This document shows positions 3,820 through 60,177 of a DNA stretch of 63,326 nt, piece by piece; the first letter of the stretch is position 1, and each line of letters opens with the position of its first letter. The stretch is from a candidate division WOR-3 bacterium (GTDB lineage Bacteria; Hydrothermota; Tepidihabitantia; Tepidihabitantales; Tepidihabitantaceae). The notes below the pieces were generated by a model that was not told where the DNA came from, ran no database searches, and saw only the letters and a program-made list of their open reading frames with translations. A program made the position numbers and the translations under genes. The stretch covers positions 1-63,326 of the forward strand of contig JAPLUO010000214.1 in assembly GCA_026397595.1 (NCBI GenBank). The letters run 5' to 3'.

Positions 3820-3888
3820 GCGGGAATTCCAGTTCACGTGAGGGGGAAATGCGGGGGGAAATGCGGGACACTTCCCGTACTTCAGAGC

Positions 3889-3960
3889 GATGTCAAGGCG
3901 CGGCAGGAAGAGGTGGTCGAGTTGGTGGAAATGCGGCTGAAGTCGCACAAGGACTTGCCC
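3889..3960 (+). repeat. RM-tail repeat R1
   Basis: GATGTCAAGGCGCGGCAGGAAGAGGTGGTCGAGTTGGTGGAAATGCGGCTGAAGTCGCACAAGGACTTGCCC, reading DVKARQEEVVELVEMRLKSHKDLP. Homologous to 4985-5060. Confidence 0.8.
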
Positions 3961-4941: not shown

Positions 4942-4975
4942 AGGGAAGAAGGGCAAGCCCTGAACGCTCCCCATA

Positions 4976-5224
4976 ATGCTGAGCGGTGTCAAGGCGCGGC
5001 ATGACAGGATGGTCGGTCTGGGCGAGATGATGCTGAAGCTGCACAAGGACCTGCCCAAGGCCAAGACGCCGCACGAGCAGGAATCCCTCCAGCGCCAGAT
5101 AGCGGCAACCGATAGGCAGATAGACACCTTCGTGTACGAGCTGTATGGACTGACGGAAGAGGAGGTTAGGATTGTGGAGGCAGTGCCAACTCGCGAGGCG
5201 AGCGTGGGAGGTAAGTCGAAATGA
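4976..5224 (+). pseudogene. 3' remnant of the type IIG RM/methylase gene (repeat R2, the most complete copy)
   Basis: VKARHDRMVGLGEMMLKLHKDLPKAKTPHEQESLQRQIAATDRQIDTFVYELYGLTEEEVRIVEA is the characteristic extreme C-terminus of TaqI_C/Eco57I-like enzymes. It is the only copy that is open to a stop codon, and that stop overlaps the next gene's start (ATGA). Confidence 0.6.
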
Positions 5225-5499: not shown

Positions 5500-5576
5500 G
5501 CTCAATGCAATGGGATAACCATGGACAGTCCCCTACTTGATGACGATATCAAGGCGCTGCGTGACGGAGCTGCTGT

Positions 5577-6029
5577 ATGACATGCTTTGAAAGCCTGAGC
5601 GTCTGGACTGCCGTCGCTTCAGCGCTCTCAGCCACTGTGGGCCTGCTACTGACTGCCAAAGCCCTCCGGGCCAACACTATACAGCGGAACTTGGACCTCT
5701 TCGTCAAGTACTACCAGCGAGTGGTCGATGCTGCCGACCGAATGACGCAAGCAGGCGATCCCAAGGAGCACCGGCGCTTAGTATTCGGTCTTGGCGTAGA
5801 GCTAGAGGGATTCGCGTTCCTCGTCAACAACGGGTACTTGAATGACCGCAAGATGATTGACTTCTGGAAGCCAACTCTGCTCGGCTGGCATGAGGAGCTG
5901 TTCCCGCCCCGCATTCCCGACTGGAGTGACCCCAAGAACTACGTTGAGTTCAAGAAACTGTGTCGTAGTCTGAAAGTCTCTGAGAACAACATGCCTGATG
6001 TTGACAGCCGGCACGGCACGACCGGGTAG
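5577..6029 (+). CDS. hypothetical protein with an N-terminal membrane anchor
   Basis: 150 aa with one hydrophobic helix (VWTAVASALSATVGLLLTA). No family recognised. Confidence 0.4.
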   Translation: MTCFESLSVWTAVASALSATVGLLLTAKALRANTIQRNLDLFVKYYQRVVDAADRMTQAGDPKEHRRLVFGLGVELEGFAFLVNNGYLNDRKMIDFWKPTLLGWHEELFPPRIPDWSDPKNYVEFKKLCRSLKVSENNMPDVDSRHGTTG

Positions 6030-6037
6030 TCGCGGCG

Positions 6038-6140
6038 ATGCTGAATCTGCACAAGGCCTTGCCCAGGGCCAAGACGCCGCATGAGCAGGAATCCCTCCAG
6101 CGCCAAGTCGTCGCTAGCGACAGCCAGACTGACTCGTTGG
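6038..6140 (+). repeat. RM-tail repeat R3
   Basis: Reads MLNLHKALPRAKTPHEQESLQRQVVASDSQTDSL. The DNA is clearly homologous to 5025-5130. It starts 9 nt after the upstream stop codon. Confidence 0.8.
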
Positions 6141-6239
6141 CATGTAGCCGGGAAGCTGCCACGGATGCGTGGCGGGAAAGAGTGTCATGATGAAGGACTT
6201 GACCCCGCTTCTCAGTACGTCCTATTGTGGTGTTGAGAG

Positions 6240-6692
6240 ATGACATTCCCGACTAGGCATGTCGCGCGTGTCATAATCATTGACGGTGCGGACTCCGTCT
6301 TGCTTTGCAGGTACTCGGAGACCATTGACGACCTCGCGGTCTGCTATTGGGTTCCTCCCGGAGGGGCGCTGGAGGCGGGAGAGGACCATCATGCGGCGGC
6401 TCTTCGTGAGACCAGAGAGGAAACCGGTCTGGTCGTGCAACTTGGCCGTCAACTCTGTGAGAGGCGGTTCATCTTACACATGCAGGATGGACCCGTTGAC
6501 CAGATCGAGCGCTACTTTCTTGCCCGACTCTCTTCAGTGAAGCCCGAGGTGGCCAACTCTCTCGGTGAGGACATTCAGGAACTGCGCTGGTGGCCGTTCC
6601 ACGACCTTCGGTTCACGACCGAGAGGATCTATCCGGAGGGTCTTGTGGAGCAGCTCTCGAGTCTGATGGCTGGGACCCGTATCTCCAAGTGA
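6240..6692 (+). CDS. NUDIX hydrolase
   Basis: Nudix box GGALEAGEDHHAAALRETREETGL. The stop codon lies inside repeat R4. Confidence 0.85.
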   Translation: MTFPTRHVARVIIIDGADSVLLCRYSETIDDLAVCYWVPPGGALEAGEDHHAAALRETREETGLVVQLGRQLCERRFILHMQDGPVDQIERYFLARLSSVKPEVANSLGEDIQELRWWPFHDLRFTTERIYPEGLVEQLSSLMAGTRISK

Positions 6693-6800
6693 TGTCAAGG
6701 CGAGGCATGACAAGATGGTCGAGTTGGTCGAGACGATGATGACAACCGATAGCTTACGGCTGACAGCTTGCGGCTTGCAGCTCACGGCTGACAGCCTCGG
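6691..6800 (+). repeat. RM-tail repeat R4 plus a low-complexity word tail
   Basis: GATGTCAAGGCGAGGCATGACAAGATGGTCGAGTTGGTCGAGACGATGATG (DVKARHDKMVELVETMM), followed by cggctgacagc/gcttgc word repeats. Confidence 0.8.
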
Positions 6801-6809
6801 CAAAGCGGT

Positions 6810-7553
6810 GTGAGTGAGATGTCTCCGAAATCCGGCCGGGTCGTGAAGCCAGCGACGGGCAGTTCGGAATCACCTGTTTCCGGTGAACTCGTAAGCGCCC
6901 GGGAGTTCTGGGACCGTTGCTTCAAGGAGGTCGCTCCCGATGTTAAGGATGCGCCTCCTGGCCGCGACCTCTCTGAGATCGTCAACCGCCTGCGAGCAGC
7001 GTCGGCGGTCGATGTGCTTGATGTGGGCTGCGGGCTCGGCCGCTGGAGCGTGACTCTGGCACGAGCCGGGTTTCGGGTTCTCGCGGTGGACGTGTCGTCC
7101 GAAGCGGTGAGGATCGTACGCGAGAGAGCGCAACGTGAGGGTCTGGCCATCAGCACGGCAGTCTGCGCCGCTCAGGAGCTATCTCGGCCGGGCGTCCATG
7201 TTGATGCGGTGGTGTGCAACTCGGTGCTCGACCACATGCGCCCGCATGATGCGGACATGGCCGCAACGAACATCATGCAGACGTTGAAGCCTGGCGGCCT
7301 GGCGTACGTATCGTTCGACGGCCTCGACATCGGAGACACCGGTCCTGAAGTGCGACAGAACTACCGTGTCGCCGCGGACGGTACATGGGAATACGTGCGC
7401 GGCCCGCGAAGAGGAATGATCTGGCGGTACTACCAGGACCCGGAGATACGCAGGCTGTTTCGGGAGTTCGAGGAAGTAGAGTTCTCTGTCTGGAATACCG
7501 GGCAGCGACGCACCTGGTTCCGCAAACCAATCAGGGACAGTCACCCGACATGA
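6810..7553 (+). CDS. class I SAM-dependent methyltransferase
   Basis: Motif I VLDVGCGLGRWSVTLARAGFRVLAVDVS, and later LKPGGLAYVSF. Confidence 0.8.
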   Translation: MSEMSPKSGRVVKPATGSSESPVSGELVSAREFWDRCFKEVAPDVKDAPPGRDLSEIVNRLRAASAVDVLDVGCGLGRWSVTLARAGFRVLAVDVSSEAVRIVRERAQREGLAISTAVCAAQELSRPGVHVDAVVCNSVLDHMRPHDADMAATNIMQTLKPGGLAYVSFDGLDIGDTGPEVRQNYRVAADGTWEYVRGPRRGMIWRYYQDPEIRRLFREFEEVEFSVWNTGQRRTWFRKPIRDSHPT

Positions 7554-7635
7554 AGACGGCGGCAAGGTGCGGCGGGTGACGCGTGCCGGAGTTGCCATAT
7601 CTGCTAAAAGCAGGAGAATAGACGCTCTGCTATCA

Positions 7636-8976
7636 ATGAAAGGAACGCGAATGCTCAGAACCTCAGTCTTTGGTCTGGCCCTGTTGTCCCTGGTCTTGGC
7701 CGGGCCGGCAGATGATTTCGAGTCCCGGGTGACCGAGTTCAAGCTTGCGAACGGCCTGCCGGTGCTGGTCTACACGGATTCCTCGGCGCCGGTAGTGACC
7801 GTCGCGGTCGCCTACAAGGTGGGCTCGAACTACGAGCCGGCCGGCAAGACCGGCCTGTCCCACATGCTCGAACACATGACTTTTCAGCACAGCGACATCT
7901 ACAAGCCGGGCGAGTTCTTCCGGACTATCCAGGCGAACGGAGGTGTGAACAATGGCTTCACCTCCGGTTACTATACCGCCTATTTCGAGGTCTTCGCGCG
8001 CGAGAAGTGGGAACTCGGAATGAAGATCGAGGCCTCACGCATGGGGCGCTGCGTCTTTCTCGATTCCGATTTCGCAAGCGAGCACCAGGTCGTGGCCGAG
8101 GAGCAGCGACTCAGCGAGAACAGCCCGTCCAGTGTCTTCTGGACCCAGCTCAACGCCGCGGCACTGCTTGCCCACCCGGCGCGCAACCCAACGGTGGGTT
8201 GGGCCGACGATGTCGCGCATTTCACGACCGACGCAGTGCGTGACTGGTACCAGCACTACTACAGCCCGTCCAACGCGTTGTTGGTCGTAGCGGGCGATGT
8301 CCGGCCCGACGAGGTGCGAGCGAAGGCCCAGCAGTACTTCGGCAAGTACAAGGCCCGGCCGGTCAGTCTGCCGGACTTCTACAACACTGAGCCGAAGCAG
8401 GTCGGCGAGCGTCGCATGGTGGTCCATAAGATCGTCACGCAGCCGTCTCTGGCCATCGCCTATCACTCGCCGGGTATCCTCGACTCCGCGTTTTACGCCT
8501 CGGTGGTGGCCGGCGGCGTACTCGGCCAGGGCCGGGGTTCCCGCCTGTACCAAAGGCTGGTGGTCGATTCCGGACTGGCCACCAGCGCATCGGCCTACTC
8601 CGAATCCGGGCGCGACCCGGGCCTGTTCTGGGTGAGCGTCACCCCGAAGGCTGAGAGCCTGATTCCGCGCATCGAACGGATCGTCTATGCCGAGATCGGC
8701 CGATTGGGCAAGGAATCGATCACCGACCGCGAGTTGCAGCGGGTGAAGAACCAGGTGGTTGCCGACTACATCTACAGCCGCGATGCCATCATGTGGATGG
8801 CTATCATCCTGGGCAGCTACCAGCTTACCCATGGTTCGTGGCGAGAATTCAAGCTGTATCCCGAGAAGATCGGCCGAGTGACCGCGGCCGAGGTGCAGAG
8901 CTTCTGCCGGGGGTTTCTGACGGCCGACAATCGTACGGTCGGGACGTTGCTCCCGATTGCGCAGGAGGAGAAATGA
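7636..8976 (+). CDS. M16 family zinc peptidase (catalytic subunit), secreted
   Basis: HxxEH zinc motif (LSHMLEHMTF). Signal-peptide-like N-terminus from the ATG at 7636. Confidence 0.85.
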   Translation: MKGTRMLRTSVFGLALLSLVLAGPADDFESRVTEFKLANGLPVLVYTDSSAPVVTVAVAYKVGSNYEPAGKTGLSHMLEHMTFQHSDIYKPGEFFRTIQANGGVNNGFTSGYYTAYFEVFAREKWELGMKIEASRMGRCVFLDSDFASEHQVVAEEQRLSENSPSSVFWTQLNAAALLAHPARNPTVGWADDVAHFTTDAVRDWYQHYYSPSNALLVVAGDVRPDEVRAKAQQYFGKYKARPVSLPDFYNTEPKQVGERRMVVHKIVTQPSLAIAYHSPGILDSAFYASVVAGGVLGQGRGSRLYQRLVVDSGLATSASAYSESGRDPGLFWVSVTPKAESLIPRIERIVYAEIGRLGKESITDRELQRVKNQVVADYIYSRDAIMWMAIILGSYQLTHGSWREFKLYPEKIGRVTAAEVQSFCRGFLTADNRTVGTLLPIAQEEK

Positions 8977-9035
8977 GACGCGGCCATTTCAGATTTCAGA
9001 TTGCAGATTGCAGATTGAGGAATTGCGGAAACCGA

Positions 9036-10361
9036 ATGACACGAGTGATTGTCGCGGCGTGCATTATGGGCGGCCTGGCCTCAGCCGTGCCGCTGTATCG
9101 CGATACCCTGCCGAACGGGCTGGCCGTTGTCAGCTACGTGGATCATCGCCTGCCGATGACCGACATCGCGTTTGTCTGCCGGTCCGGCTCGGCCAGCGAT
9201 CCGGAGGGCAAGTGGGGACTCGCCAACGGCACCGTGACCCTGATGACCCGGGGCACGAAGTCGATGACCGCGGATTCGATTGCGAGCATCGTCGAATTCC
9301 TCGGCGCTCAGTTCAACGGCTATGCGGGCAACGACAACAGCATGATCTCCCAGCGCGTTCTGGCCAAGGACCTCGTGACCGGGCTGGACCTGCTGACCGA
9401 CGCTGTGCGCAATCCGAGCTTCGAGGCGAAGGAGGTCGAGCGCGCCCGGGCTGAAGGGATGGCTCAAGTCCGGGAGATGTCCGACTATCCGCTGGCCCGG
9501 GTGATGGTGGACTTCTACCAGACGCTCTTACCCGGTCACCCGTACGCTCACCAGACCATCGGCGACACGGTATCGCTGATGGCGATTACGCGGGAAGACC
9601 TCATCGCCTTTCACAAGACCAACTACGTGCCCAACAACTGCTTCATCGTGGCGGTGGGCGACTTCGACCGGCCCGAGTTGCTGAAGATGATTCAGGCCCG
9701 GTTCGGCGACATGACCCGGGGTGAGGTTACGGAGGTCAAAGCTCCGGACATGCCTTTCCCGGCCAAGCTGCGAGTGAAGCTCATCGCCCGCCCGGACATG
9801 AACCAGACCTACATCATGTTCGGCCATCCCGGCATCGCGTACTCTGATTCAGACCGGCTGGCAACGAACCTGGCCGTCCACATCCTCGGCGGCGGCGCCC
9901 TCGCCTCTCGGATTGGTGATGCCGTGCGCGAAGAGGCCGGCCTGGCGTATGAGGTCCGCACCGTCTTCGACCAGGACCGTCTGCGTGGGGCATTCTGGGC
10001 CTGGGTGCAGACCGCCAAGCCCAAAGAGGCAATCGCCATCATGTTCCGGGAGATCGAGAGAATGCGGAAGGACGGCGCGAAGAAGAGCGAACTCGAAGAG
10101 GCGCAGAACTACTACGCCGGTAGCTACCCGATTCGGTTCAGCTCCAACCAGGGCAAGCTGTACGAAGCGGTCAATATCGAGTTCTACCAGCTCGGTCTGG
10201 ACTGGGTTGACAAGTACCCGGACAAGATCCGCGCCCTGACCCTTGACGAGGTCAACCGGGCCGCGCGCGAGCGCCTGCATCCCGGGCACTACGTTATGGT
10301 CGTCATGGGCAACGTGAAGAAAGAGGACCTTGGACTGAGCGACGTCGAATGGATTGAATAG
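9036..10361 (+). CDS. M16 family peptidase, non-catalytic partner
   Basis: M16 fold similarity throughout, but no HxxEH motif. Start trimmed to the ATG at 9036 (MTRVIVAACIMGGLASA). Confidence 0.8.
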   Translation: MTRVIVAACIMGGLASAVPLYRDTLPNGLAVVSYVDHRLPMTDIAFVCRSGSASDPEGKWGLANGTVTLMTRGTKSMTADSIASIVEFLGAQFNGYAGNDNSMISQRVLAKDLVTGLDLLTDAVRNPSFEAKEVERARAEGMAQVREMSDYPLARVMVDFYQTLLPGHPYAHQTIGDTVSLMAITREDLIAFHKTNYVPNNCFIVAVGDFDRPELLKMIQARFGDMTRGEVTEVKAPDMPFPAKLRVKLIARPDMNQTYIMFGHPGIAYSDSDRLATNLAVHILGGGALASRIGDAVREEAGLAYEVRTVFDQDRLRGAFWAWVQTAKPKEAIAIMFREIERMRKDGAKKSELEEAQNYYAGSYPIRFSSNQGKLYEAVNIEFYQLGLDWVDKYPDKIRALTLDEVNRAARERLHPGHYVMVVMGNVKKEDLGLSDVEWIE

Positions 10362-10625
10362 GCGCGGCGTGATAAGATGGTCGGGTTTCGTACATCGTTA
10401 CTTCGGCGGACTCGTACATCGTCCAACGCGGACCGCGAGGAATGATTCCGGCCAACGATGAACGTTGCAAGGTTTCTGCCGCGCTGTCGGACAGGGGCCG
10501 CCGAGGCCAACCAACGCGGCTGGTCGAGACGATGCGGGGTTCGTACATCGTTGCATCGAAGGACTCGTACATCGTTGAGAGCCTGACGTGAGATGCAGAC
10601 GATGCTGAAGCTGCACCGTGACAGC
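10362..10625 (+). repeat. composite RM-tail repeat R5 interrupted by 'cgtacatcg' word modules
   Basis: GCGCGGCGTGATAAGATGGTCGG ... CTGGTCGAGACGATG ... ATGCAGACGATGCTGAAGCTGCAC, separated by two ~45-bp modules of the form GTTCGTACATCGTT.C.TCG..GGACTCGTACATCG. Confidence 0.75.
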
Positions 10626-10667
10626 TCACGGCCAACGGCTAGCAGTTTCAAGCAGAAGGGGAGTCAG

Positions 10668-11666
10668 ATGAAGAGAAGGACGATTTCGATACTCGGGCTG
10701 TTGACGGCACTGCTAGGCATTGGTTGCAGCGACGCGAACAACCTGCGGATTACCCTCCGCCCGGCCGATACCACGCAGTACTCGGCCAGGGGCGCTCGAA
10801 GGCTCAGGGGCGACTCGAGCAGAATCCAGTTGCGCCTTGACTGGCTCTACGACGAACCGGGCTTTCGTCCGCCCAGTGAGAGGGCGAAGGTCGAGCCCAC
10901 GGACAGCACGATTACGGTCTCGGTCTCGGACACGTCCGGCGCGGCGCGGATCGAGTACCTGGCCTCGACGCGCGGGCTAATCACGTTCCGCCAGATTGCC
11001 GGGGATTCGATTGCAGGGGCGATACTCGACAGTGTTGACGGCTGGCTCCAGTTACACCCCGGGGCGGCCGCCGCAGGCCCGGGCTTGTTGGACAAATCGA
11101 TCTTCTACCGTAGTTACCAGTGCCGGGTCCTTGAACGGGATTATCCACTGGTCAGCAACGTTTTGAAGGCGGTTGATACTGCGGTCTACGATAGCTGGGA
11201 ACCGGCGTTTGGGGTGCTCGACGCAGGCAAGATCGACACGTCTCGAATCCTCTACTTCGTTGCACGGCAGCCGGAGATGTCGAACGCGAGGGGAAGGTTG
11301 GTCGCGTCCGCGGTTGCGCATCGGGGACGTGGCACTCGGCCTCCCAACGCTCCCCCGGTGGCGCGTGAGACCCAACCTTTCCTTGTGGACATGCAACTGT
11401 CCCATGACACGTTCTGGGGCCCCGACCCGGTTCTGAAACTGGCCGAGTTCACGGCTTCTCACGTAGGCCAGCGACTCGCCATGATGCTGGATACGGTTGT
11501 GCTCTCGGCGCCAATGATTCAGGATACGATTCGGGATGGGTCGTTCATGGTTGTAACCCGCGATACCCTGGGAGCCTATGCCCGGGACTTGACGACGATC
11601 TTCCTGAGCGGACCGCTCTACCCGCCGCTGGTCGTGGAGCGGGTCGAACGAGTCGGCGGGAAGTGA
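10668..11666 (+). CDS. lipoprotein with a SecD-head-like C-terminal region
   Basis: Lipobox LLGIGC after the ATG at 10668. The C-terminus ...FTASHVGQRLAMMLDTVVLSAPMIQDTIRDGSFMV resembles the SecD periplasmic head motif. Confidence 0.5.
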   Translation: MKRRTISILGLLTALLGIGCSDANNLRITLRPADTTQYSARGARRLRGDSSRIQLRLDWLYDEPGFRPPSERAKVEPTDSTITVSVSDTSGAARIEYLASTRGLITFRQIAGDSIAGAILDSVDGWLQLHPGAAAAGPGLLDKSIFYRSYQCRVLERDYPLVSNVLKAVDTAVYDSWEPAFGVLDAGKIDTSRILYFVARQPEMSNARGRLVASAVAHRGRGTRPPNAPPVARETQPFLVDMQLSHDTFWGPDPVLKLAEFTASHVGQRLAMMLDTVVLSAPMIQDTIRDGSFMVVTRDTLGAYARDLTTIFLSGPLYPPLVVERVERVGGK

Positions 11667-11684
11667 GGCGCCCGGGGCACCATG

Positions 11685-11802
11685 CAAGGCGCGGCGTGAT
11701 CGTATGGTCGGACTGGCGAGAGGATGCGGCCTCGTACAGCGTTGCATCGGAGGAATCGTACATCGCGCGGAGCCACCGCTAGCCGTGAGCCGTAAGCCGA
11801 GG
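11685..11802 (+). repeat. RM-tail repeat R6 plus word tail
   Basis: CAAGGCGCGGCGTGATCGTATGGTCGG..., then a third cgtaca(t/g)cg module, then gccgtgagccgtaagccgag words. Confidence 0.7.
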
Positions 11803-11946
11803 GTCCTCCCCGACGCGCTGGGGTTTCGGCGTGAGCGGTGAAGAGTTGACCGGACCACGTTCGAACCCTATGATTTGAGAGACCGTACGGCCCGTGCGTC
11901 GCATCGGGCCGGCGGAATGACCGCATCAGGAGGCACATTGAAGAAA

Positions 11947-14302: not shown

Positions 14303-14514
14303 TCGCGCGGGGAATCCCGAGACGCAAACCGGATTCCGTCCGCGCCTTTTACTGCCTGTTCTCCAATCAGGACTGTGTTCCTGTCCCGCGGAGTCGTGCC
14401 GGAGAACGTGCCCGCAGCCGAGAGCCGTGAGCCGATAGCGACCCTGGACGTGTTGCTGCGGGAATTGTACGGAGTGATGGAAGAGGAGATCATGATTATC
14501 GAAGGAGAGCAAAG

Positions 14515-15072: not shown

Positions 15073-15115
15073 TTCCGGGAGGGAGGAGAAGCGGCTGCTT
15101 TCCATATTCCTGAGC

Positions 15116-15195
15116 GATGTCAAGGCGCGGAGTGACAAGACAGCCGAGTTGGTCGAGCGGATGGTGACGGCTGGCGGCTTGAGGCTTGTGGTTTG
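15116..15195 (+). repeat. RM-tail repeat R7 plus word tail
   Basis: GATGTCAAGGCGCGGAGTGACAAGACAGCCGAGTTGGTCGAGCGGATGGTG (DVKARSDKTAELVERMV), followed by ggcggcttgaggcttgtgg words. Confidence 0.8.
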
Positions 15196-15206
15196 AAACC
15201 CGCAAC

Positions 15207-18200
15207 CTACAACTTGGTCCGGCGCAGGCGGAGGGAGTTGGTGACCACGTTCACTGAGGAAAGGCCCATCGCCACTTCGGCCATGATGGGATGGAGCAGC
15301 CCGAGCATGGCCAGCGGTATCGCGACCACGTTGTAGGCGAACGCCCAGAAGAGGTTTTGCCTTATCTTCACAAAGGTGGCGCGGGAGAGCTTGATTGCGG
15401 AAACAACACCTGTCAGGCTGCCGCGCACGAGTGTGACGTCCGACGATTCAATGGCCACTTCGGTGCCGGTGCCGATGGCGATGCCGACGTTGGCGGCCTT
15501 CAAGGCCGGCGCGTCGTTGATGCCGTCGCCGACCATGGCCACGCTGCCGAACTCTTTCTGCAGGTCCATCACGACCTGCTGCTTCTGCGCGGGCAGGACT
15601 TCCGCGACCACGCGCTCGATTCCGACTTCGCGGGCAATCGACTCCGCAGTCTCATGGTTGTCGCCGGTCAGCATCACTGGCACGATGCCGAGCGCCTTGA
15701 GGCCGGCAATCGCCTCGGCTGAGTCCGGCTTGACCGTGTCGGCCACGCCGATGACGCCGAGCAGTTTTCCTCCGGCCGCGACGTAGAGCGCACTCCGCGC
15801 CCGCTTCTGGAGTTCTGTCGCCGCATCGGTGAGAGCACGGCAGTCAACCCCGCATTCCTTGAGCAGTTCCTCTTTGCCGACCACCACCTCGACGCCACTC
15901 ACCAGGCCTTTCACACCCAGGCCCGGAACAGCTTGAACTTCCGTTGCCTGCGAGAGAAGTTCTTTGGAGTGCGGCAGCGGAGCTGCCGCCTTTCCGGGCT
16001 CGTCCGTCCGGTTCGGAAAAGCGGGAGCTGCGCTCCCGCACTCCAAGGCCCCGGAAGCACCGCAATCCGGTACGGTCCCCACGATTTCGGTCATGTCCCG
16101 CGCCGCGGCGATTACCGCTCCTGCCAGAGGATGTTCCGACCCCTGTTCCACTGCAGCAGCCATCCTCAGTACATCGGCTCGCTGCACCCCGGCGGCCGGA
16201 ATCACGTCGGTGACCGCGGGCCGGCCCTGCGTGATGGTGCCGGTCTTGTCGAGCACGACCGCGCGGACGTCTTTCAGGGTCTGAATCGCCTCTCCCGAGC
16301 GGAAGAGAATCCCGCGCTCCGCGCCCATGCCGGAGCCGACCATCAAGGCGGTCGGAGTCGCAAGCCCCAAGGCGCACGGGCAGGCAATCACCAACACCGC
16401 GACTCCGGCAAAGAACGCGAGCGATACCACCGGTAATTGCGGGTTGACCCATGGCAGGAACTTCGCGGCCCATACGAGCATCGGCTTGAGGCTCGGCGTC
16501 AGGAAGAACCACGCGGCAAAGGTCACCGCTGCGACCAGCAGGATTACAGGTACGAAACGGGCCGTTACCTTGTCGGCAAACGCCTGAATGGGAATCTTGG
16601 TGCCCTGTGCCTGCTCGACCAGCTTGATAACCTGGGAGAGGAACGTGTCTTTGCCTACACGGGTAGCCTCGACCTTGATGAGGCCGTTGCCGTTCACTGT
16701 CGCGCCGATGACCTCGTCGCCGGTCTTCTTCTCGATCGGCAACGACTCGCCGGTCGCCATTGATTCGTCCACGCTGGTGCTGCCTTCGACAATCCGGCCG
16801 TCGGTGGGAATCTTCTCTCCGGGCCGGACAACCATCACGTTGCCGGGCGCGAGTTGCGCAACCGGCACTTCCTTCTCGACGCCCTCAGCCGTTTGAATCC
16901 GCGCGGTGCGCGCACCGAGGGCGACGAGCTTCTTGATCGCCTGTGAGGCCCGGCCCTTTGCGCGCGCCTCGATGTACCGGCCGGTCAGGAACACGGCCAT
17001 CACCATGCCACCGGCGTCGGCAAAGCTCTTTATCGGCAGCCCGGCCAGCACGGCGACCCCGGAAGCCAGCGCCGCGCTCACGCCGAGCACAATCAGCACG
17101 TCCATCGAAGCGGACCCGGCGCGCACCGAACCCCATGCCCCGCGTATCGTGGTCCATCCCGGGCCGAACAGCACCGCGGTGCAGAAGGCGACGTCAATCC
17201 AGACCATCCCCGGGATGTGGACCGCGTGGAGGCCGTGCAGCACCATCAGCAGCATCGGCACCAGCCCGAGAATCCAGGCCCAGACCAGCCGGCTGGAGGC
17301 ACGGCGAAGTTCGGCCTCGGCATGGTCTTCGCTGCCGGCCGTTTCGTGCCTGACTTCGTAACCGACGTCGGTAACCGCCTTCTCAAGCGCGGCGACCGGC
17401 GACACCTTGGGGTCGAACTCGACGATCGCCTTCTCAATGGCGAAGTTCACTGTCGCTGTCTTTACGCCCGGCAGCCGGTTGAGCGCCTTCTCCACGGTGG
17501 CCACGCAGCTCGCACAGCTCATGCCGCCGACCGCAAGTGTCACGGTCTGGGTCTTCCCCAGTTCCGCCTTGTCGAGCAGCACGGGCTCGGGCAAACCGCT
17601 GTCCGCGATTTGTCCTTCGTCCTTCGTCCTTTGTCTTTCTCCCTGCAAGAACCTCTCCGGTTCGGACTGGAACCGCTTCAGGCAGTTCGGGTTGCAGAAG
17701 TAGAAGGTAGTGCCCTTGTAGTCCCACTTCGCCGCCTCCTGCCCTTCCTGAACCACCATCTTGCACACCGGGTCAATGTGAGATTGCCGATTGACGGTTG
17801 CGGATTGTAGAATGTCCGGACCCTTTGTGTCTTCGAGTCTTGGTGGTAAGGTGCCGTCAGTTCTGACTTCTGACTTCCCCCGTACTTTCGTGTCCTTGTG
17901 TCTTTGTTGTGGGATTCCAGCAGTTCTGACCTCTGGACTCTGCATTCTGACTTCTGCCTTCGGTTGCGCTGCCGGCTGAGGTTTGGGCTTGAGTCCAAGG
18001 TACAGGTCCGGGTCAGCCTTGAACTGCTCAAGGCAGCTTTGGCTGCAGAAGTAGTACGTCTTTCCATTGTACTCCCACTTGCCCGCCTCACGGCCCTCGA
18101 TAACGTGCATTCGGCACACCGGGTCAACGTGCGACTTCGCCAGTCCCTCGGCCACCGGCACGACTTCAGGCGTCTTCTGCTCGACCGGCGGTTTCGTATC

Positions 18201-18356
18201 GAAGTGCGACTCCGGGTTCTGCTGGAACTTGCGGGCGCAGACCTTGGAACAGAAGTAGTACGTTACGCCGTCGTACTCGCGCCGGGCAGCCTCCTGCCCC
18301 TCCACAACTTCCATCTTGCAGACCGGGTCAATGTGTCGAATCGGAACTGTCTTCAT
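15207..18356 (-). CDS. copA: copper-translocating P1B-type ATPase with three N-terminal YHS/TRASH domains and one HMA domain
   Basis: Three copies of DPVC(K/R)M.V...YYFC.. modules. [11 protein letters not shown] motif, CPC (ACPCALG), [13 protein letters not shown]. Confidence 0.95.
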
Positions 18357-19722: not shown

Positions 19723-19832
19723 GGAGGTCACACCAGCCACGCGAATTCCCCATTCTGGCTTCGCGCCTGGTCTTGTATTGGGGTTTCGGGCTTGATTCGT
19801 CATTCGGACTTCGTCATTCGGACTTCTGCGAA

Positions 19833-19918
<86 letters not shown>

Positions 19919-19926
19919 GAGAAACT

Positions 19927-20015
19927 AAGGGGTCAGGGGGGCAGGGGGTCAGGGGTTCCGGGGTTCAAGGGTTCCGGTTCCGGCACCAGAACCCCAAGAC
20001 CCTCGAACCCGCTAA
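19927..20015. repeat. imperfect low-complexity palindrome (ggggt/ggttc words) between the tRNA and the transpeptidase operon
   Basis: gggttcaagggt on the left is complementary to accctcgaaccc on the right. The flanking arms are built from related words. Confidence 0.5.
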
Positions 20016-30738: not shown

Positions 30739-31537
30739 ACTCATCATCCTCTGGCGACCGCTGGTCGCCGCGGTGCTCGGCGGGCTGGTCTGCGGCGTGG
30801 TCGGCGTCTGGGTGGTGATGATGAACATCCCCTTTGTCGGCGTCGCGATGTCGCACGCGGCCTTTGCCGGCGCGGTCACGGGGCTCCTGCTTGGAATCAA
30901 CCCGCTCCTCACCGCCGCGGTCTTCTGCATCGCGGCATCGCTGCTCATCGGCCCGGTCGCCGAGCGCGCCGACATCGAACCCAACGTCTCGCTCGGCATC
31001 ATCTTCTCGGTCGTGCTGGGCTTCGCCTTCCTCGCCATCGGCCTGATGCGCGGCCCGCGGTCTGACGCTCTCAGCCTGATATGGGGAAGCATCCTGCTCG
31101 TCTCCGCGCGCGACCTCGCGCTGATGGCCGGCGCGACCGTGGCCGTGCTGCTCTTCCTCGGGTTGTTCTACAAGGAGATTCAGGCCGTACTGTACAACCG
31201 CGAAATCGCCCGTGCCGTCGGGATACCCGAGCGCGCGCTCTTCTTCGCGATGCTGGTCCTCTGCGGCCTGTCGGTCACCGCCAATCTGAGCACCATCGGC
31301 GGCCTACTCATCTTCAGCCTCATCGTCAACCCGCCGTCCGCGGCCTTTCAGTTGACCTACCGGCTCAAGACGATGTATTTGCTGTCGGCGCTGTTCGGGG
31401 TCCTGTCCTGCCTGGTGGGATTGTTCGTGTCGTGGCTGACCGACGCGCCGGCCGGCGCGGTCATCATCATCGCATCGAGTGTGGTATTTGTGGTGGCGTT
31501 GCTGCTATCGCCCAAGCGAAGTAAGTTAGTGAGTTAG
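30728..31537 (+). CDS. metal ABC transporter permease (ZnuB/TroC family)
   Basis: Polytopic with family-typical ...FVGVAMSHAAFAG.... The start overlaps the ATPase stop. Confidence 0.85.
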   Translation: MPPELIILWRPLVAAVLGGLVCGVVGVWVVMMNIPFVGVAMSHAAFAGAVTGLLLGINPLLTAAVFCIAASLLIGPVAERADIEPNVSLGIIFSVVLGFAFLAIGLMRGPRSDALSLIWGSILLVSARDLALMAGATVAVLLFLGLFYKEIQAVLYNREIARAVGIPERALFFAMLVLCGLSVTANLSTIGGLLIFSLIVNPPSAAFQLTYRLKTMYLLSALFGVLSCLVGLFVSWLTDAPAGAVIIIASSVVFVVALLLSPKRSKLVS

Positions 31538-31620
31538 GAGTTAGTAGGTTAGCAGTCCAGAGTCGGACAGAAGCCGGACAGGCTCCTAACTGCTAACTCC
31601 TAACTGCTACCTGCTAACTA
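31525..31620. terminator. bidirectional hairpin built from GTTAG/CTAAC words between convergent genes
   Basis: The left arm gttagtgagttaggagttagtaggttagcag is complementary, in several registers, to the right arm ctcctaactgctaactcctaactgctacctgctaac. It fills the whole gap between the permease stop and the pckA stop. Confidence 0.6.
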
Positions 31621-31624
31621 CCAG

Positions 31625-33280
31625 CTACTTCCCCGGGCACTCTCTCGCTACCGCGGGGTCTATCGCCTTCGCGCCGTACGCCTTGTCGAACTGAGCGCAG
31701 AACTCGGCCGCGAGCTTCTTGGCTCGCTCGTCGTAAGCCGCCTTGTCCGGCCACGTATTCCGCGGGTTCAGCACGGTCGGGTCGGACACACCCGGGCAGC
31801 TCTTCGGCACATCGAGGTGGAAGATCGGATCGGTGACGCAGTCGACCTTGGCGAGCGAGCCGTTTAGCGCGGACTCGACGATTTCCCGGGTCAGGCTGAT
31901 GTCCATCCGTGTCCCGACGCCGTACGGTCCGCCGCTCCAGCCGGTGTTCACGAGGTAAACGTTCGCGCCGTGCCGGTCCAGTTTCTCCCCGAGCAGGTGG
32001 GCATAAACGTCCGGGTTGAGCGGCATGAACGGCGCGCCGAAGAACCGCGAGAACGTACTCTTCGGGTCGACGATGCCGGTTTCGGTCCCGGCCAGCTTCG
32101 AAGTGTAGCCCATCAGGAACCAGAGCATCGCCTGGTTGCGGGTTAGACGCGCGACCGGCGGCAGCACGCCGTTCGCATCCGCGGTAAGGAACAGGATGGT
32201 CTTCGGGTGGCCGCCGACCGGCGGCGTCTTCACGTTGGACAGGAACGAAAGCGGGTAGGAACCGCGCGAGTTGGGCGTGTAGCGCTCATCGTCAAGGTCA
32301 AACCGGCCGTCCGGGTAAACCATCGCGTTCTCGACAATCACCCCGTGCTCAAGATACGGCGCTTCGTGGAAGCAGGCCCGGTAGATGTCCGGCTCTTTCT
32401 TCGGGTCCAGGTTGATGAGCTTGGCGTAGCAGCCGTCCTCGAAGTTGGCCACACCGTTGTCGCTCCAGCTATGTTCGTCATCGCCCAGCAAAGCCCGACG
32501 CGGGTCGGCTGACAGCGTGGTCTTGCCCGTGCCGGAAAGCCCCAGGAGCAACGCCACGTCGCCGTTCCGGCCCTCGTTGGCCGAACAGTGGAGCGGCAGA
32601 ATGCCCTGCAGCGGCAGCAGGTAGTTCATTACAGTGAACATGTGCTTCTTCACGCTGCCGCAGTAAGCCGAGCCGAAGACCACGCCGCAGCGGCGGTCCA
32701 TGTCCATCGCGATGACCATGCTTGAAGCCTTGCCGGTCTCCGGAATCGTCCGCAGCCGGCCGGCATAGCGGGCCGGGTCGAGCTTGTCGTAAGGGAGCAC
32801 GACAAGCGTGTAGGGCCGGGAGGCAAAACAGGACTTGCCGATGTCGGGCGGGACCCGCCGGAACATGCTGTCGGCAAACAGGACCGAGAGCGCCCGGTCG
32901 GAGACGACCCGCACCGGCAGTGCGTGACTCGGGTCGGCACCGAGCACACGGTCCGTGGCGTAGAGCCGCGGCTTCCTTGCGAGCGCGGCCAGCGCGTCCG
33001 CGACGACCATGTCAAACGTGTCCGGCGTAATCGGCAGGTTGTTCGGCGCGTCCCAGTCGATGTTCTTCTCGGATTCGACCCGGCGCACGGTGACCGTGTC
33101 CTGCGGGCTGCGCCCGGTCGATTCCGGCGGGGTCCATGTCGCGAGGCAACCGCACGCCGCGACCATCGCCTCGCGCCGCGCCACCGCGTCCGCGATCATC
33201 GCCTTGCGGTCCGGGTTGGCTTTCACGCCCCCGTGCCGACTGAGGAGCCCATCGAGCTTCTGCTTCAGTTCGCTTTCCAT
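31625..33280 (-). CDS. pckA: phosphoenolpyruvate carboxykinase (ATP)
   Basis: GLSGTGKTTLSADP kinase-1a motif, with full-length similarity to ATP-dependent PEPCK. Confidence 0.95.
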   Translation of the reverse strand: MESELKQKLDGLLSRHGGVKANPDRKAMIADAVARREAMVAACGCLATWTPPESTGRSPQDTVTVRRVESEKNIDWDAPNNLPITPDTFDMVVADALAALARKPRLYATDRVLGADPSHALPVRVVSDRALSVLFADSMFRRVPPDIGKSCFASRPYTLVVLPYDKLDPARYAGRLRTIPETGKASSMVIAMDMDRRCGVVFGSAYCGSVKKHMFTVMNYLLPLQGILPLHCSANEGRNGDVALLLGLSGTGKTTLSADPRRALLGDDEHSWSDNGVANFEDGCYAKLINLDPKKEPDIYRACFHEAPYLEHGVIVENAMVYPDGRFDLDDERYTPNSRGSYPLSFLSNVKTPPVGGHPKTILFLTADANGVLPPVARLTRNQAMLWFLMGYTSKLAGTETGIVDPKSTFSRFFGAPFMPLNPDVYAHLLGEKLDRHGANVYLVNTGWSGGPYGVGTRMDISLTREIVESALNGSLAKVDCVTDPIFHLDVPKSCPGVSDPTVLNPRNTWPDKAAYDERAKKLAAEFCAQFDKAYGAKAIDPAVARECPGK

Positions 33281-36512: not shown

Positions 36513-38525
36513 TTATCGCACACTGCCAACGCGGCCGGTGTTCTTGATGTCATGGTGGAACTTGGGCCAGGCAGAGTTGGCCAGCGTGCCCGTGCCTCTC
36601 AGCGCGTACAGGTAGCCGTCATCGCTCACGAAATAGATCGTTCCATCAGGCCCGATGGTCGGTGATGACTCAACATGGGCGCCGGTCCGGTACCGCCATA
36701 TCAGTGTGCCGTCTGGACCCAGGGCGTAGAGGCAGTTGTCGTCCGAGCCGCAATAAACCGTGCCGTCAGAGCCGATGGCCGGCGAGGCATCAATGTTGCT
36801 GCCGGTCAGGTACCGCCACTTCAGAGTGCCGTACGGGTTCAGGGCATAGACGTAGTTATCCTGCGACCCAAAGTAGATTGTGCCGTCAGCAGCGATTACC
36901 GGGGAGGAGCTGATATTCCTGCCGGTCGAGTCGCGCCACTTGAGGGTGCTGTCCGAGTTCAGGGCATAGAGGAAGTTGTCGTACGACCCGACGTATATCG
37001 TGCCGTCAGCGGCGATGGCTGGCGAGGACCGCACATCGGAGCCGGTCTGGTACCGCCACTTGAGCGTGCCGCCGGTGTCCATGGCGTAGAAGTAGTTGTC
37101 GTCCGAGCCGCAATAGACCGTGCCGTCAGAACCGATGGCCGGCGAGGCAGCGACGGCCCTTGCTGTCGGGTAGCTCCATCTTAAAGTGCCGTCCGTGTTC
37201 AGGGCATAGAGGTAGTTGTCATCTGAGCCAAAATAGACCGTCCCGTCAGCCGCAATGGCCGGGGACGAAACGACATGGCCACCGGTCGGGTACCTCCACT
37301 TGAGAGTACCGTCATGGTTCACGGCATACAGGCAGTAGTCATATGAACCGAAGTAGACCGTGCCGTCAGCCGCGATTGCCGGGGAGGACTGCACATCGCC
37401 GCCGGTCGGATAGCGCCACTCAAGCGTGCCGCCGGAGTTGATCGCGTATAGCGAGTCATCCGGAGACCCGACGTATATTGTGCCGTCCGGACCGATGGCC
37501 GGCGATGAATTCATCACGAGATCTACGCCGTAGGCCAAACGGAAGCGCCACTTGCGCATCGTGTCCGGCGGCTGGATGACGATGGAATGCGGGAATGACC
37601 ATTGGGACAGCACATTGCCCGTGTCCTTTGCCTGCGCCCTTATTTCGTAGATGTCAGGCACCGACCAGGCGTGGCTATCCGTCACCGGTTCGCCGGAGGC
37701 AACGTAGCGGCTCCAGTCGGAAGTGTCGCCATCGCCCCAGGCAAACCTGATCGCCACCGTGATTCCGTCGGGATGGGAAGCAGCGGCGGTGAAGACGTAG
37801 GATGAGTCCCTCCCCCCTTCCTCCGGCCCGGTCGGAGCAGCCGGCGTATTAGGCGGCCTGCGGGGCACCACACAAACCGAGAGCGCGCCGGACCAACCGG
37901 AGCCGAGGAGCTTCTGGTCCCTCGCCTGAGCAGTGACCTTGTAGGCCCCGGTATCGGACCAGGCGTGGCTCATTGCCGCCGGTTCGCCGGAGGCAACGTA
38001 AGGGCCCCAGTCTGACGTGTCGCCATCGCTCCAGGCGAAGCGAACGGCCACGCTATCGCCGGCCGGATGGGTCGCGACGGTCGTGAAGGTATAGGTCATG
38101 CCCTTGAAACAGGTGTCGGGGCCGATCGGAACGGCCGGCACGTTCGGCGGGTGGAGAACCACTCGCACCGAGCGCACGCCGGACCAGTCGGAGCTGAGGA
38201 ACTTCTGGTCTCTTACCTGGGCAGTGACTTCGTAGGTCCCGGTGTCAGGCCACGCATGAGTCAGCGCGATCATGTCCCCGCTTGGGGACCAGCCTTTCCA
38301 GTCCGAAGTCGTCGAATCGCCCCAGTCGAAACGGACGGCCACGCTGTCGCCGTCCGGGTCGGTCGCGATTACCGAGAAGACGTAAGTTGTGTCTTTGAAA
38401 CAGAGTTGGGGGCCGGCCGGCACGTCCGGCACGTCAGGTGCGTGATTCTTCCTGCAGGAAGAAACCGCAACGAGCGCCAGCGCAGCAGACAGCACGAGAA
38501 ACGGTCGGACGTAATTTCGAAGCAT
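36513..38525 (-). CDS. secreted protein with four PKD-like domains and a PQQ/BamB-like beta-propeller
   Basis: Four copies of ...F.....DPDGDSVAVRF.WGDG.TSDW... modules, then ~8 repeats of GTL.WRY.TG..V.SSPAI..DGT(I/V)Y.GS.D..LYA. Confidence 0.75.
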   Translation of the reverse strand: MLRNYVRPFLVLSAALALVAVSSCRKNHAPDVPDVPAGPQLCFKDTTYVFSVIATDPDGDSVAVRFDWGDSTTSDWKGWSPSGDMIALTHAWPDTGTYEVTAQVRDQKFLSSDWSGVRSVRVVLHPPNVPAVPIGPDTCFKGMTYTFTTVATHPAGDSVAVRFAWSDGDTSDWGPYVASGEPAAMSHAWSDTGAYKVTAQARDQKLLGSGWSGALSVCVVPRRPPNTPAAPTGPEEGGRDSSYVFTAAASHPDGITVAIRFAWGDGDTSDWSRYVASGEPVTDSHAWSVPDIYEIRAQAKDTGNVLSQWSFPHSIVIQPPDTMRKWRFRLAYGVDLVMNSSPAIGPDGTIYVGSPDDSLYAINSGGTLEWRYPTGGDVQSSPAIAADGTVYFGSYDYCLYAVNHDGTLKWRYPTGGHVVSSPAIAADGTVYFGSDDNYLYALNTDGTLRWSYPTARAVAASPAIGSDGTVYCGSDDNYFYAMDTGGTLKWRYQTGSDVRSSPAIAADGTIYVGSYDNFLYALNSDSTLKWRDSTGRNISSSPVIAADGTIYFGSQDNYVYALNPYGTLKWRYLTGSNIDASPAIGSDGTVYCGSDDNCLYALGPDGTLIWRYRTGAHVESSPTIGPDGTIYFVSDDGYLYALRGTGTLANSAWPKFHHDIKNTGRVGSVR

Positions 38526-44140: not shown

Positions 44141-44690
44141 CTCTCTGCTCCTGTCCGACCAGTCCGACGTGTCCGACCGGTCCGACTCCGGACAGCGGTC
44201 CCAGACTCCTTATCTGGTCGGTGTACTCCCGCACGACCTGGGCGAACTTCGCACCCTCAGCCGCGGAAATCCACTCGAGCCGGAGCCGTTCCTCTTCGAC
44301 GCCCAGTTGCTGCATCAGCCGCTTGAGCATCATGGTCCGCTTCAGGGTCTTGTAGTTGCCGCTCTGATAGTGGCAGTCGCCCGGATGGCAGCCACCGATG
44401 AAGACTCCGTCCGCGCCGTCGCGGAAAGCCTGGAGCACGAGCGCGGGGTCCACGGAACCCGAGCACATTACCCTTATCGCCCGCATGTTGGTCGGGTACT
44501 GCAGCCGGGAGGTGCCGGCCAGGTCTGCGCCGGCATACGTGCACCAGTTGCACAGGAATCCGACAATCCTCGGTTCAAACACCTGTCCGCTGTCCGTTGT
44601 CCGCACCTCTGACTGCTGACTTCCGACCTCCGACCTCTGACTTTTGACTTTTGACTTTTGACCCTTGACTTCTAACTTCTCCGTTCCCAC
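44130..44690 (-). CDS. mvhD: methyl-viologen-reducing hydrogenase delta subunit (MvhD/FlpD family)
   Basis: IVGFLCNWCTYAGADLAG...MCSGSV...GGCHPGDCHY. The ~35 N-terminal and ~20 C-terminal residues are low-complexity word DNA, so the true start is uncertain. Confidence 0.85.
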   Translation of the reverse strand: MGTEKLEVKGQKSKVKSQRSEVGSQQSEVRTTDSGQVFEPRIVGFLCNWCTYAGADLAGTSRLQYPTNMRAIRVMCSGSVDPALVLQAFRDGADGVFIGGCHPGDCHYQSGNYKTLKRTMMLKRLMQQLGVEEERLRLEWISAAEGAKFAQVVREYTDQIRSLGPLSGVGPVGHVGLVGQEQRDGG

Positions 44691-60071: not shown

Positions 60072-60177
60072 GTCCGGAGTAGTGACCTAGTGGTCAAGTG
60101 ACCCAGTGCCCCAGTGAAGGAGATGCAGGCAGTGTCTGCGCGCCCGGCCACTTGGACACTAGACCACTGGACCACTT

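Follow-up and report, generated by a model that had tools for sequence, protein, structure and literature searches.

Mosaic intergenic repeats such as REP/BIME, BOX, ERIC and the small dispersed repeats (SDR) are known from a few cultured groups of bacteria, and their origin is mostly obscure. The short tandemly repeated repetitive (STRR) sequences of cyanobacteria are heptanucleotide tandem repeats, and small dispersed repeats, or 'nano-elements', were reportedly described from the Nostocaceae by Elhai et al. in 2008. Elements of the REP/REPIN type nest into or beside existing elements (PMC3116915). Here we analyse a contig of 63,326 nt (JAPLUO010000214.1, assembly GCA_026397595.1; called the window throughout) from a candidate division WOR-3 bacterium, with a G+C content of ~62%, in which a repeat of ~200-250 bp, termed R, accompanies a run of plus-strand genes and is interrupted by short periodic word arrays, among them the 'cgtacatcg' modules on both sides of a lipoprotein gene. 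We consider it probable, with modest confidence, that these word modules are parts of a BIME-like mosaic family of intergenic repeats, in which minisatellite-like arrays are reshuffled by slippage and homologous recombination. Judging from the matching loci, the family appears to occur in candidate division WOR-3 bacteria and their close relatives, and a literature search returned no description of such repeats in WOR-3.

R is homologous to the last 60-85 codons of type IIG restriction-modification (RM) genes of the MmeI/Eco57I type. The 82-aa open reading frame (ORF) of copy R2 matches the tail of a 1017-aa RM protein (domains MmeI_Mtase, Eco57I and TaqI_C) encoded in L094, one of the loci outside the window, which are numbered with the prefix L (53% identity over 58 aa, tblastn E 4e-12). 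The homologous tail consists of the residues after the TaqI_C domain, the last ~60-85, and fragments bearing PF12950 (P0084, P0137, P0138 and P0141) share an R-type tail end. Searches with the R2 ORF gave nothing significant in Pfam, NCBIfam or PDB and just two weak haloarchaeal matches among plasmids (tblastn), and a protein database search returned 944 relatives, one of them labelled candidate division WOR-3. Of the 944, the best 120 consist almost entirely of ORFs that stand alone (54-142 aa, 61-92% identity), and the core common to the R-ORF relatives is MVGLVETMLKLHKDLPKAKTPHEQESLQRQIAATDKQIDALVYELYGLTEEEIRIVEG. Hundreds of stand-alone copies are present, some as intact small ORFs and many broken; all copies in the window stand alone behind unrelated genes, with no methyltransferase/endonuclease body attached. 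Pairwise differences at the three codon positions (0.20, 0.17 and 0.38 among 19 ungapped R DNA copies) suggest that uninterrupted R evolves, or recently evolved, as coding sequence. These comparisons show R to be RM-tail DNA that has turned into a dispersed repeat. The origin of this mosaic family can therefore be traced, to the 3' end of a type IIG RM gene, and the family has hundreds of copies in an uncultured phylum.

A preliminary description of this DNA had read the word modules as small non-autonomous elements inserted at a preferred site of R. The anatomy that it reported was confirmed. The uninterrupted tail of R2 is indeed unbroken at the junction (GAGATGATGCTGAAGCTGCAC at 5024-5044), and the three modules in direct orientation around the lipoprotein gene are 41-nt repeats at 10382, 10535 and 11726 (M1 to M3), M2 and M3 being 88% and 76% identical to M1. 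The modules and the R pieces that carry them are laid out as follows.

10358 to 10384, + strand: R5a, an R head cut off after GATGGTCGG.
10382 to 10422, + strand: M1, with the centre variant ACTTCGGCGGAC.
10423 to 10520, + strand: spacer S behind M1, with the 25-nt matched core (10484-10508) of a ~27-nt mini-module, CTGTCGGACAGGGGCCGCCGAGGCC.
10521 to 10535, + strand: second copy of the R head end, TGGTCGAGACGATG (10521-10534) plus C, holding the left copy of AGACGATGC.
10535 to 10596, + strand: M2 (10535-10575, centre GCATCGAAGGAC) and its right flank X (TTGAGAGCCTGACGTGAGATGC).
10597 to 10646, + strand: right copy of AGACGATGC (10597-10605), the resumed R middle GATGCTGAAGCTGCAC (10601-10616) and CGGCT-type words (10617-10646).
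10668 to 11666, + strand: lipoprotein gene (332 aa; its C-terminal part resembles SecDF_P1_head), standing as a separate block between two copies of R.
11685 to 11726, + strand: R6, an R head to CGAGAGGATG.
11726 to 11766, + strand: M3, with centre GCATCGGAGGAA and first word variant TCGTACAGCG.
11775 to 11850, + strand: AGCCG words (11775-11800), then a probable decayed R end at ~11806-11850, so assigned by its position and partial similarity (compare ...GACGCGCTGGTGTATGAGTTGTACGGGCTGACGGAAGAG in L060).

R5 has a foreign insert at 10536-10596, behind the head end TGGTCGAGACGATG (10521-10534), and R resumes after it, at R65, as GACGATGCTGAAGCTGCAC. The insert and its GACGATG flanks are present as described; the insert measures 61 nt, and the flanking duplication is longer than had been reported, comprising 9 exact nucleotides (AGACGATGC, 10527-10535 and 10597-10605). 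Copies R4, R6 and R7 likewise leave R after ...GA(C/G)GATG, at 6738, 11726 and 15163, respectively; they had been thought to be broken by different words, but the cgtacagcg of R6 belongs to the same module family. Allowing one mismatch, the word TCGTACATCG was counted 12 times in the window (3.5 expected), six of these within 10388-11765; the three modules are much more clustered than expected by chance, and motif counts lie well above those in shuffled sequence. The lipoprotein gene is also flanked by a 23-nt inverted repeat of CGGCT/AGCCG words (10624-10646 and 11775-11797, 83% complementary).

The modules are dispersed well beyond this region. A scan with an exact pattern of one genome per species gave 7 loci, one of them labelled WOR-3, with the module directly after an R head in 6 of the 7, and a looser pattern run against metagenomes gave 83. 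Of the 78 non-redundant matches in metagenome-assembled genomes and metagenomes, 53 have an R head immediately 5' of the module and in the same orientation, ~16 are parts of long word hairpins that lack R, and 8 are chance matches in coding sequence; an R head precedes the module in 53 of the 70 genuine copies. The modules are clearly found beyond this locus; their absence elsewhere was an outcome that the preliminary description had named as speaking against it. The M1 centre ACTTCGGCGGAC has nine non-redundant copies, the unit of M1 followed by S recurs in at least ten loci, the R head end TGGTCGAGACGATG is also the conserved 3' end of spacer S in many loci, and the M3 variant is shared with L003 and with L007/L039/L075/L090. 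That M1 to M3 are local duplicates of one another is ruled out, since they carry three different centre variants, each of which is found in other genomes.

This dispersal also bears on whether the pattern could be an artefact of chance similarity or of chimeric assembly at repeats, which we regard as extremely improbable. The source is a metagenome-assembled genome, repeats may mislead assemblers, and exact repeats of 9-10 nt do arise by chance in the region; the same composites, however, were recovered from many samples, on dozens of independent contigs, which effectively refutes this explanation, and motif counts are far above those of shuffled sequence. The longest exact repeat among the R copies of the window is 23 nt, which makes an assembly chimera unlikely.

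The modules and other words enter R at a limited set of points. Five junction classes were distinguished: R55-59, after GATGGTCG (20 copies); R72-73, after GACGATG (15 copies); R38-42, after GGCGCGGC (10 copies); R64-68, after GTTGGKCG (5 copies); and R43-46, after CATGAC (3 copies). The two main classes fall at the ends of an internal direct repeat of R, GGTCGAG-TT-GGTCGAG, and most of the ~60-aa R ORFs reported by gene callers begin at the ATG in GACG-ATG-CTGAAG or in AAG-ATG-GTCG, at the two main junctions. In all sequence examined, the head end TGGTCGAGACGATG is followed by CGGCT-type words ~25 times, by the cgtacatcg module 15 times and by uninterrupted R 7 times, counts that are biased because the loci were picked by the module pattern. 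The R head end ...GACGATG is a genuine hot spot, which upholds part of the claim of a preferred insertion site; a single fixed point, as had been proposed, is not compatible with five junction classes.

Variants of the module are partly linked to these junctions. ACTT is found at R55-59 in 11 of 12 cases and GGTT at R72-73 in 4 of 5, and GCAT is present in every junction class. On the right, X, S, AGCCG words and Y follow the modules in free combination, and array length ranges from 2 to 5 words with a 24-nt period in all copies (12/24-nt), extra 12-nt words being present in L002, L008, L021, L031, L034 and L037. This is an extragenic mosaic of recurrent motifs in variable order, whose composites recur in L058, L028, L031 and L003. 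The units lie head to tail and their copy number differs between homologous loci, as in a minisatellite. L003 consists of the left part of window R5 and the right part of R6 joined at the module, in another gene context, and this join matches the product of a recombination between M2 and M3, which is only suggestive. L003 was also considered as an empty site for the lipoprotein gene; this was not accepted as proof because the flanking genes differ, and it is kept as a family member with a fused architecture. Locus L016 carries four co-oriented R heads, though some of its neighbouring ORFs are not co-oriented, and in L094 another word module (AATGGTGAATTAGGAATGATGAAT...) lies in R at a different point and is repeated in a second R copy 1.6 kb away. 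A word module AATAGTGAATTAGGAATAGTGAAT... was observed at a fixed point of the R middle in two L094 copies (8046-8340 and 9717-9950), and outside R in L096 (7870-7930), L003 (3480-3510) and L016 (6630-6650).

R forms a scaffold, and at a few hot spots its interior is broken up, or its place taken, by short arrays of periodic words (the cgtacatcg module, the CGGCTGA/CAGCTTG heptamers, the 27-nt mini-hairpin and others), which behave like minisatellites nested in a dispersed repeat. We propose that the arrays would arise or expand by slippage and would be copied together with R, and homologous recombination or gene conversion between R copies could then reshuffle them, with the modules and the internal repeat GGTCGAG...GGTCGAG as likely homology patches for the exchange. 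The anatomy, the dispersal, the mosaic combinations and the breakpoints at R are seen in the sequences themselves; slippage combined with recombination is the mechanism that we infer.

The flanking duplication in R5 had been taken for a target-site duplication, and it deserves separate consideration. Empty R copies hold a single GA(C/T)GATG, which indicates that the duplication was absent from the ancestral repeat, as the preliminary description had supposed. The modules do interrupt sequence that is unbroken in other copies, namely R1 to R3 and, in L096 and L093, the R copy in front of the lipoprotein homologue. For two fixed boundaries, sharing 9 nt by chance has a probability of ~4e-6, and four further exact repeats of 9-10 nt arise by chance within the same 1.5 kb. 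The duplication is limited to copies with a module behind GACGATG and is exact only in the window: it is 4-5 nt in L005, L028, L031 and L058, less clear in L046 and L053, and in eight copies that have this module and right flank (L011, L019, L020, L029, L050, L071, L080 and L089) R sequence is lost or the duplication is absent. In L089 the M1+S block alone lies between two GGTCG repeats, with nothing gained or lost. The complete order of head, M, S, head end, M, X, R middle and CGGCT words is found in L058, and its second half (S-derived head end, M, X and R middle) in L028, L031 and L046, and this recurrence suggests that the duplication in the composite is old and inherited. On these comparisons, the 9-nt AGACGATGC duplication appears to be an inherited trait of one composite subfamily and not a fresh target-site duplication. 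The neat flanking duplication of one copy is insufficient for calling a transposon.

Whether an enzyme mobilises the modules is best considered with the ~27-nt mini-module CTGTCnGACAGGGGCCGCnnnGGCC, of which the window copy lies at 10484-10508. It occurs in at least 15 different contexts; loci beyond the window that carry it include L018, L025, L044, L046, L047, L058, L060, L069, L072 and L090. The mini-module is found in spacer S of the window, L003, L058 and L069 and not in S of L023, L028, L056, L067, L081 and L089, and it sits in the loop of a hairpin in L025 (copy L025/L065) and not in that of L038. Its flanks are alike across contexts (CG/CA | AAC(C)AACG), and it has a 4-bp stem, GGCC-N5-GGCC, with compensatory changes to GACC/GGTC and GGCT/AGCC. 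The sequence of the mini-module and its contexts makes it seem closest to a small dispersed repeat, and it offers the best support for a reading in which the 27-nt mini-hairpin at least, and perhaps also the cgtacatcg block, would be SDR- or REP/REPIN-like nano-elements, inserted at short targets in R and other word arrays by an enzyme acting in trans, for example a RAYT/IS200-like HUH transposase. We consider this, the main rival reading, unlikely overall. The occurrence of modules in many genomes and contexts, the presence or absence of the mini-module in homologous spacers (L069 and the window against L081, L023 and L089; L025/L065 against L038), its similar flanks and compensatory stem changes, the exact 9-nt flanking duplication in the window and the hot spots at defined points of R are all in keeping with it, and SDR5 of the Nostocaceae, reported to insert at HIP1 sites in work cited in PMC5861425, offers a precedent. 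The cgtacatcg module, on the other hand, has no palindrome, terminal inverted repeats or significant fold; its length varies, its junctions fall into five classes, its flanking duplication is inconsistent and its variants are partly linked to junction type. No module indels are seen between contigs 92-99% identical, and no transposase was found among the Pfam-scanned ORFs of the window or the gene calls of L094 and L096, which make up a small part of the genomes.

Several of these points also tell against the description of the modules as small non-autonomous elements. An inverted-repeat search over 10340-11880 found no terminal inverted repeats at the module ends, and a stable fold is lacking (z +0.39 for M2+X and +1.27 for M3 plus words). 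Comparison of 11 contig pairs, 90-99.6% identical, gave no module indels and only three unrelated small indels, one of them in the loop of a word hairpin. With arrays of 2-5 words in place of a unit of fixed size, no stable fold, no terminal inverted repeats and no indels between close contigs, the modules do not behave as such elements, and the idea of a target-site duplication cannot be sustained when its length is 9 nt in one copy and 4-5 nt in others, when it is absent or replaced by a deletion in eight, and when it is inherited with the composite. Homologous recombination and slippage within a mosaic repeat family account better for these observations, and there are nevertheless points that weigh against them. 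Recombination events have not been seen directly. The exact 9-nt duplication in the window is the trace expected from a staggered-cut insertion, and the recurrence of the mini-module in at least 15 unrelated contexts with similar flanks looks more like site-specific insertion than recombination. The ~16 module copies outside R mean that R is not strictly required for spread; the selection of loci by module pattern biases the counts of what follows R heads; and the flanking genes of the R copies compared differ, so that these copies may not be orthologous.

Folds were computed as RNA or DNA, on both strands, against shuffled sequence. A reading of the R-context modules as structured RNAs or as hairpins of miniature inverted-repeat transposable elements (MITEs) was rejected, since R5, R6, M1+S, M2+X and M3+words all give z between -0.9 and +1.3; the secondary structure that the preliminary description had proposed to look for in the modules is no better than in shuffled sequence. 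An imperfect palindrome or hairpin is not found in the cgtacatcg module and is found in the mini-module stem and in word hairpins elsewhere. Words pair with their reverse complements into long hairpins in other parts of the window and in loci such as L018 (z -4.7, -3.1 and -3.4). Inverted pairs of word arrays forming long imperfect intergenic hairpins were observed at 31505-31635 (z -4.7), 61480-61585 (z -3.1) and 60070-60190 (z -1.1), folded as DNA. These intergenic word hairpins may be terminators made of periodic words.

A further alternative is that selection maintains the modules as cis-acting sites that regulate neighbouring genes, for example as pairs of TCGTACATCG boxes recognised by a protein in DNA or RNA, or as portions of terminators or 5' leaders. 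The modules lie between genes and mostly share the orientation of their neighbours, the lipoprotein homologues of five genomes have an R copy upstream, and the strong word hairpins elsewhere in the window (z -4.7 at 31505-31635 and -3.1 at 61480-61585) would suit such a role. A second TCGTACATCG word and the 24-nt spacing recur in many genomes, but both were fixed by the search patterns, so that this conservation is not independent evidence. Moreover, the neighbouring genes are unrelated at each locus, the lipoprotein homologues in L091, L093 and L096 have no module, there is neither an Rfam match nor a thermodynamic signal for the R-context modules, and a spacing of 24 nt is not a whole number of helical turns. 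We judge a regulatory role of this kind very unlikely.

The R copies form an array within the window. A direct-repeat search with alignment recovered R1 to R7 at ~3866, 4962, 6037, 6668, 10358, 11685 and 15093, and a profile search (nhmmer, with a 38-sequence profile of the R head) placed R pieces at 3858, 4955, 5521, 6038, 6674, 7529 (weak), 10335, 14432 and 15097, to which R6 at 11685 is added. Ten or eleven R pieces hence lie between 3.8 and 15.2 kb, on the + strand throughout and within a run of + strand genes that spans the same interval, and the profile search found no R pieces in the remaining 51 kb of the window. Three of the pieces (5512-5567, 7524-7574, which is weak, and 14410-14514) add to those listed in the preliminary description. 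Apart from R5 and R6, the members of the array and the RM remnant at its upstream edge are the following.

2419 to 2637, + strand: remnant of the N-terminus of an RM gene of the MmeI/Eco57I type, matched by tblastn with the 1017-aa protein of L094 (residues 2-58 and 326-348), at the upstream edge of the array.
3855 to 3960, + strand: R1, comprising the upstream part, the head and the beginning of the middle, with an unbroken junction (GAAATGCGGCTGAAGTCGCAC); nhmmer E 2e-11.
4950 to 5224, + strand: R2, full-length uninterrupted R with an intact 82-aa ORF (4976-5224), the reference for an empty site.
5512 to 5567, + strand: R head fragment following a 92-aa ORF; nhmmer E 7.5e-4.
6005 to 6164, + strand: R3, a diverged head, then an uninterrupted middle (6038-6141); 82% over 102 nt, nhmmer E 1e-16.
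6659 to 6800, + strand: R4, head to TGGTCGAGACGATG (6725-6738), then a CGGCTGA/CAGCTTG word array (6739-6800).
7524 to 7574, + strand: tentative, weak R head fragment over the stop codon of a methyltransferase gene; nhmmer E 0.27 and reading by eye.
14410 to 14514, + strand: AGCCG words (14416-14439) and an R end fragment, LLRELYGVMEEEIMIIEGE, immediately before a 185-aa ORF; nhmmer E 0.0017.
15081 to 15200, + strand: R7, head to TGGTCGAGCGGATG (15150-15163), then GGCTKG words, the final R copy of the array; nhmmer E 7e-10.

The junction of head to words seen in R4 occurs in ~25 further loci. The heavily deleted RM remnant at 2419-2637 is preceded by toxin genes, PIN (1072-1536) and ParE (1946-2323), and the ORF that encloses it (2383-2817) has no Pfam match. 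On the right, the array is limited by a P-type ATPase gene on the - strand (15207-18356, 1049 aa), whose product has three N-terminal YHS domains and an HMA domain.

The lipoprotein gene has 30 homologues at 55-84% identity and no identical record in an exact-protein look-up. In all loci read, in five genomes, a piece of R lies just upstream of the gene, in differing states.

L096: an R ORF of 64 aa, intact and without interruption.
L093: decayed R, without interruption.
L091 (84% aa identity): an R head, then CGGCT words, without a cgtacatcg module.
L094: R with the other word module (AATGGTGAATTAGGAATGATGAAT...) at another point.
Window: two inserted blocks, M1+S and M2+X.

Since relatives have uninterrupted R or other words at this position, the module-filled state of R is probably derived. 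The modules had been described as bracketing the lipoprotein gene, but this is not a property of the modules: each gene block of the co-oriented 11-kb array has an R copy behind it, and the lipoprotein gene is bracketed for that reason. Homology between the window and L091 (85.8% nt) is restricted to 10649-11675, the lipoprotein gene alone. L096 (GCA_936419715.1) is 93% identical to window positions 7628-10357, which hold two M16 peptidase genes; the homology begins ~25 nt before the first start codon and ends at the second stop codon, and R fragments lie on both sides in both genomes. Next in L096 come two extra genes and a lipoprotein gene that is only 64% identical, again with R fragments at each junction.

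R copies thus mark gene-order changes between relatives, and their coincidence with these differences, in genomes 93% identical in the M16 genes, suggests that the R family may drive rearrangement, perhaps as a major driver in these bacteria. In a stronger form of this idea, R would be more than debris: WOR-3 bacteria would shuffle genes in the manner of cassettes, with R as the site of exchange, at which blocks would be gained, lost and swapped by homologous recombination or some recombinase. The word modules would then serve as fast-evolving homology patches that decide which R copies pair, the lipoprotein gene (10649-11675) would be one cassette, and L003 would be the junction expected after module-module excision. 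This we hold to be decidedly unlikely, and plain homologous recombination is enough to explain the pattern of gene, repeat and gene. No integrase or transposase was found among the ORFs next to the array, and no transposase among the Pfam-scanned ORFs of the window or the genes called in L094 and L096, which cover little of any genome; one contig with a lipoprotein homologue has a Transposase_mut gene in its gene list.

R also affects gene annotation. An ATG that comes from R (MQTMLKLH...) shares the reading frame of the lipoprotein gene, producing a 357-aa ORF at 10593-11666, and gene callers extend the close homologues P0002 (375 aa) and P0003 (383 aa) likewise; these N-terminal extensions are probably annotation artefacts. 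The R family is a source of over-extended gene starts and of spurious small-ORF calls (the 944 'hypothetical proteins').

Tandem words are not restricted to R. Tandem Repeats Finder (TRF) reported dozens of 7-8-nt arrays across the window, and nearly all intergenic regions have degenerate 7-8-nt tandem words (CATTCTG, ATTGCAG, GTCCTTC, TGACTTT, TTCGTTC, GACCCCT and others), for instance at 665-696, 8986-9017, 17612-17639, 44583-44679, 47452-47490, 58950-59018 and 63201-63322. Such arrays look like a genome-wide habit. The sole Rfam match in a scan of the whole window is a tRNA-Ser; this gene, tRNA-Ser(GGA) on the - strand (19833-19918), lies between arrays of two copies of TTCGTCATTCGGAC (19796-19826) and five of GGGGTCAG (19929-19977). 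Repetition was observed on a larger scale as well. A coding tandem repeat of 120 nt (40 aa), with ~6-7 units, lies at 36599-37498 (- strand) and resembles a PQQ/beta-propeller protein that adjoins the lipoprotein gene in L091, and stretches of ~2.5 kb at 44.2-47.0 kb and 54.1-56.6 kb, ~9.6 kb apart and 72-78% identical (families D6-D8, D10 and D13-D15), look like paralogous gene clusters on the - strand.

Compared with described systems, the modules resemble MITEs in being short, non-coding and dispersed, and in that one copy has an exact short flanking duplication. Unlike MITEs, they lack terminal inverted repeats, a constant target-site duplication and a fixed length, they are almost confined to R, and no related autonomous element was seen in 63 kb of the genome. 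Membership in this class was rejected on three of its defining features (terminal inverted repeats, a constant duplication and a discrete element of fixed length). Integron cassette arrays, like the R array, have co-oriented genes each followed by a repeat copy with conserved ends and a variable middle, toxin-antitoxin genes at the edge (here PIN at 1072-1536 and ParE at 1946-2323) and gene content that differs at the repeats. In contrast to integrons, R is derived from coding sequence, and the blocks include housekeeping genes (pyrF and the M16 peptidase pair). No Phage_integrase match was found among the ORFs flanking the array, a test limited by the left edge of the window at position 1, and an attC-like hairpin was not detected in the R composites (z -0.87, -0.54 and +1.06), core sites not having been formally searched.

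The cyanobacterial STRR sequences are similar in that intergenic arrays of degenerate 7-nt words, in several families, occur genome-wide; they differ in phylum and words, and here the arrays also sit at set points within a dispersed repeat and pair up as long hairpins. The SDR of the Nostocaceae, at 20-30 nt, within other repeats and with preferred short targets, are likewise comparable, the mini-module fitting best. They belong to another phylum and share no sequence similarity with the elements described here, the cgtacatcg block is longer, has tandem words and varies in length, and no mobility was seen here between close relatives.

The closest functional analogues of the R mosaic appear to be the BIME/REP mosaics of enterobacteria and the REPIN clusters of Pseudomonas. 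They differ in that the R scaffold is homologous to RM coding DNA with a coding-type substitution pattern, the cgtacatcg module is non-palindromic, the host belongs to an uncultured phylum and no RAYT was found in the sequence examined. They are alike in being extragenic and of high copy number, in combining a few motifs in an ordered yet variable way, in nesting in or next to other elements and in often lying at the 3' ends of genes, and in the R family the word modules form a further, nested layer, with combinations that are readable like a grammar.

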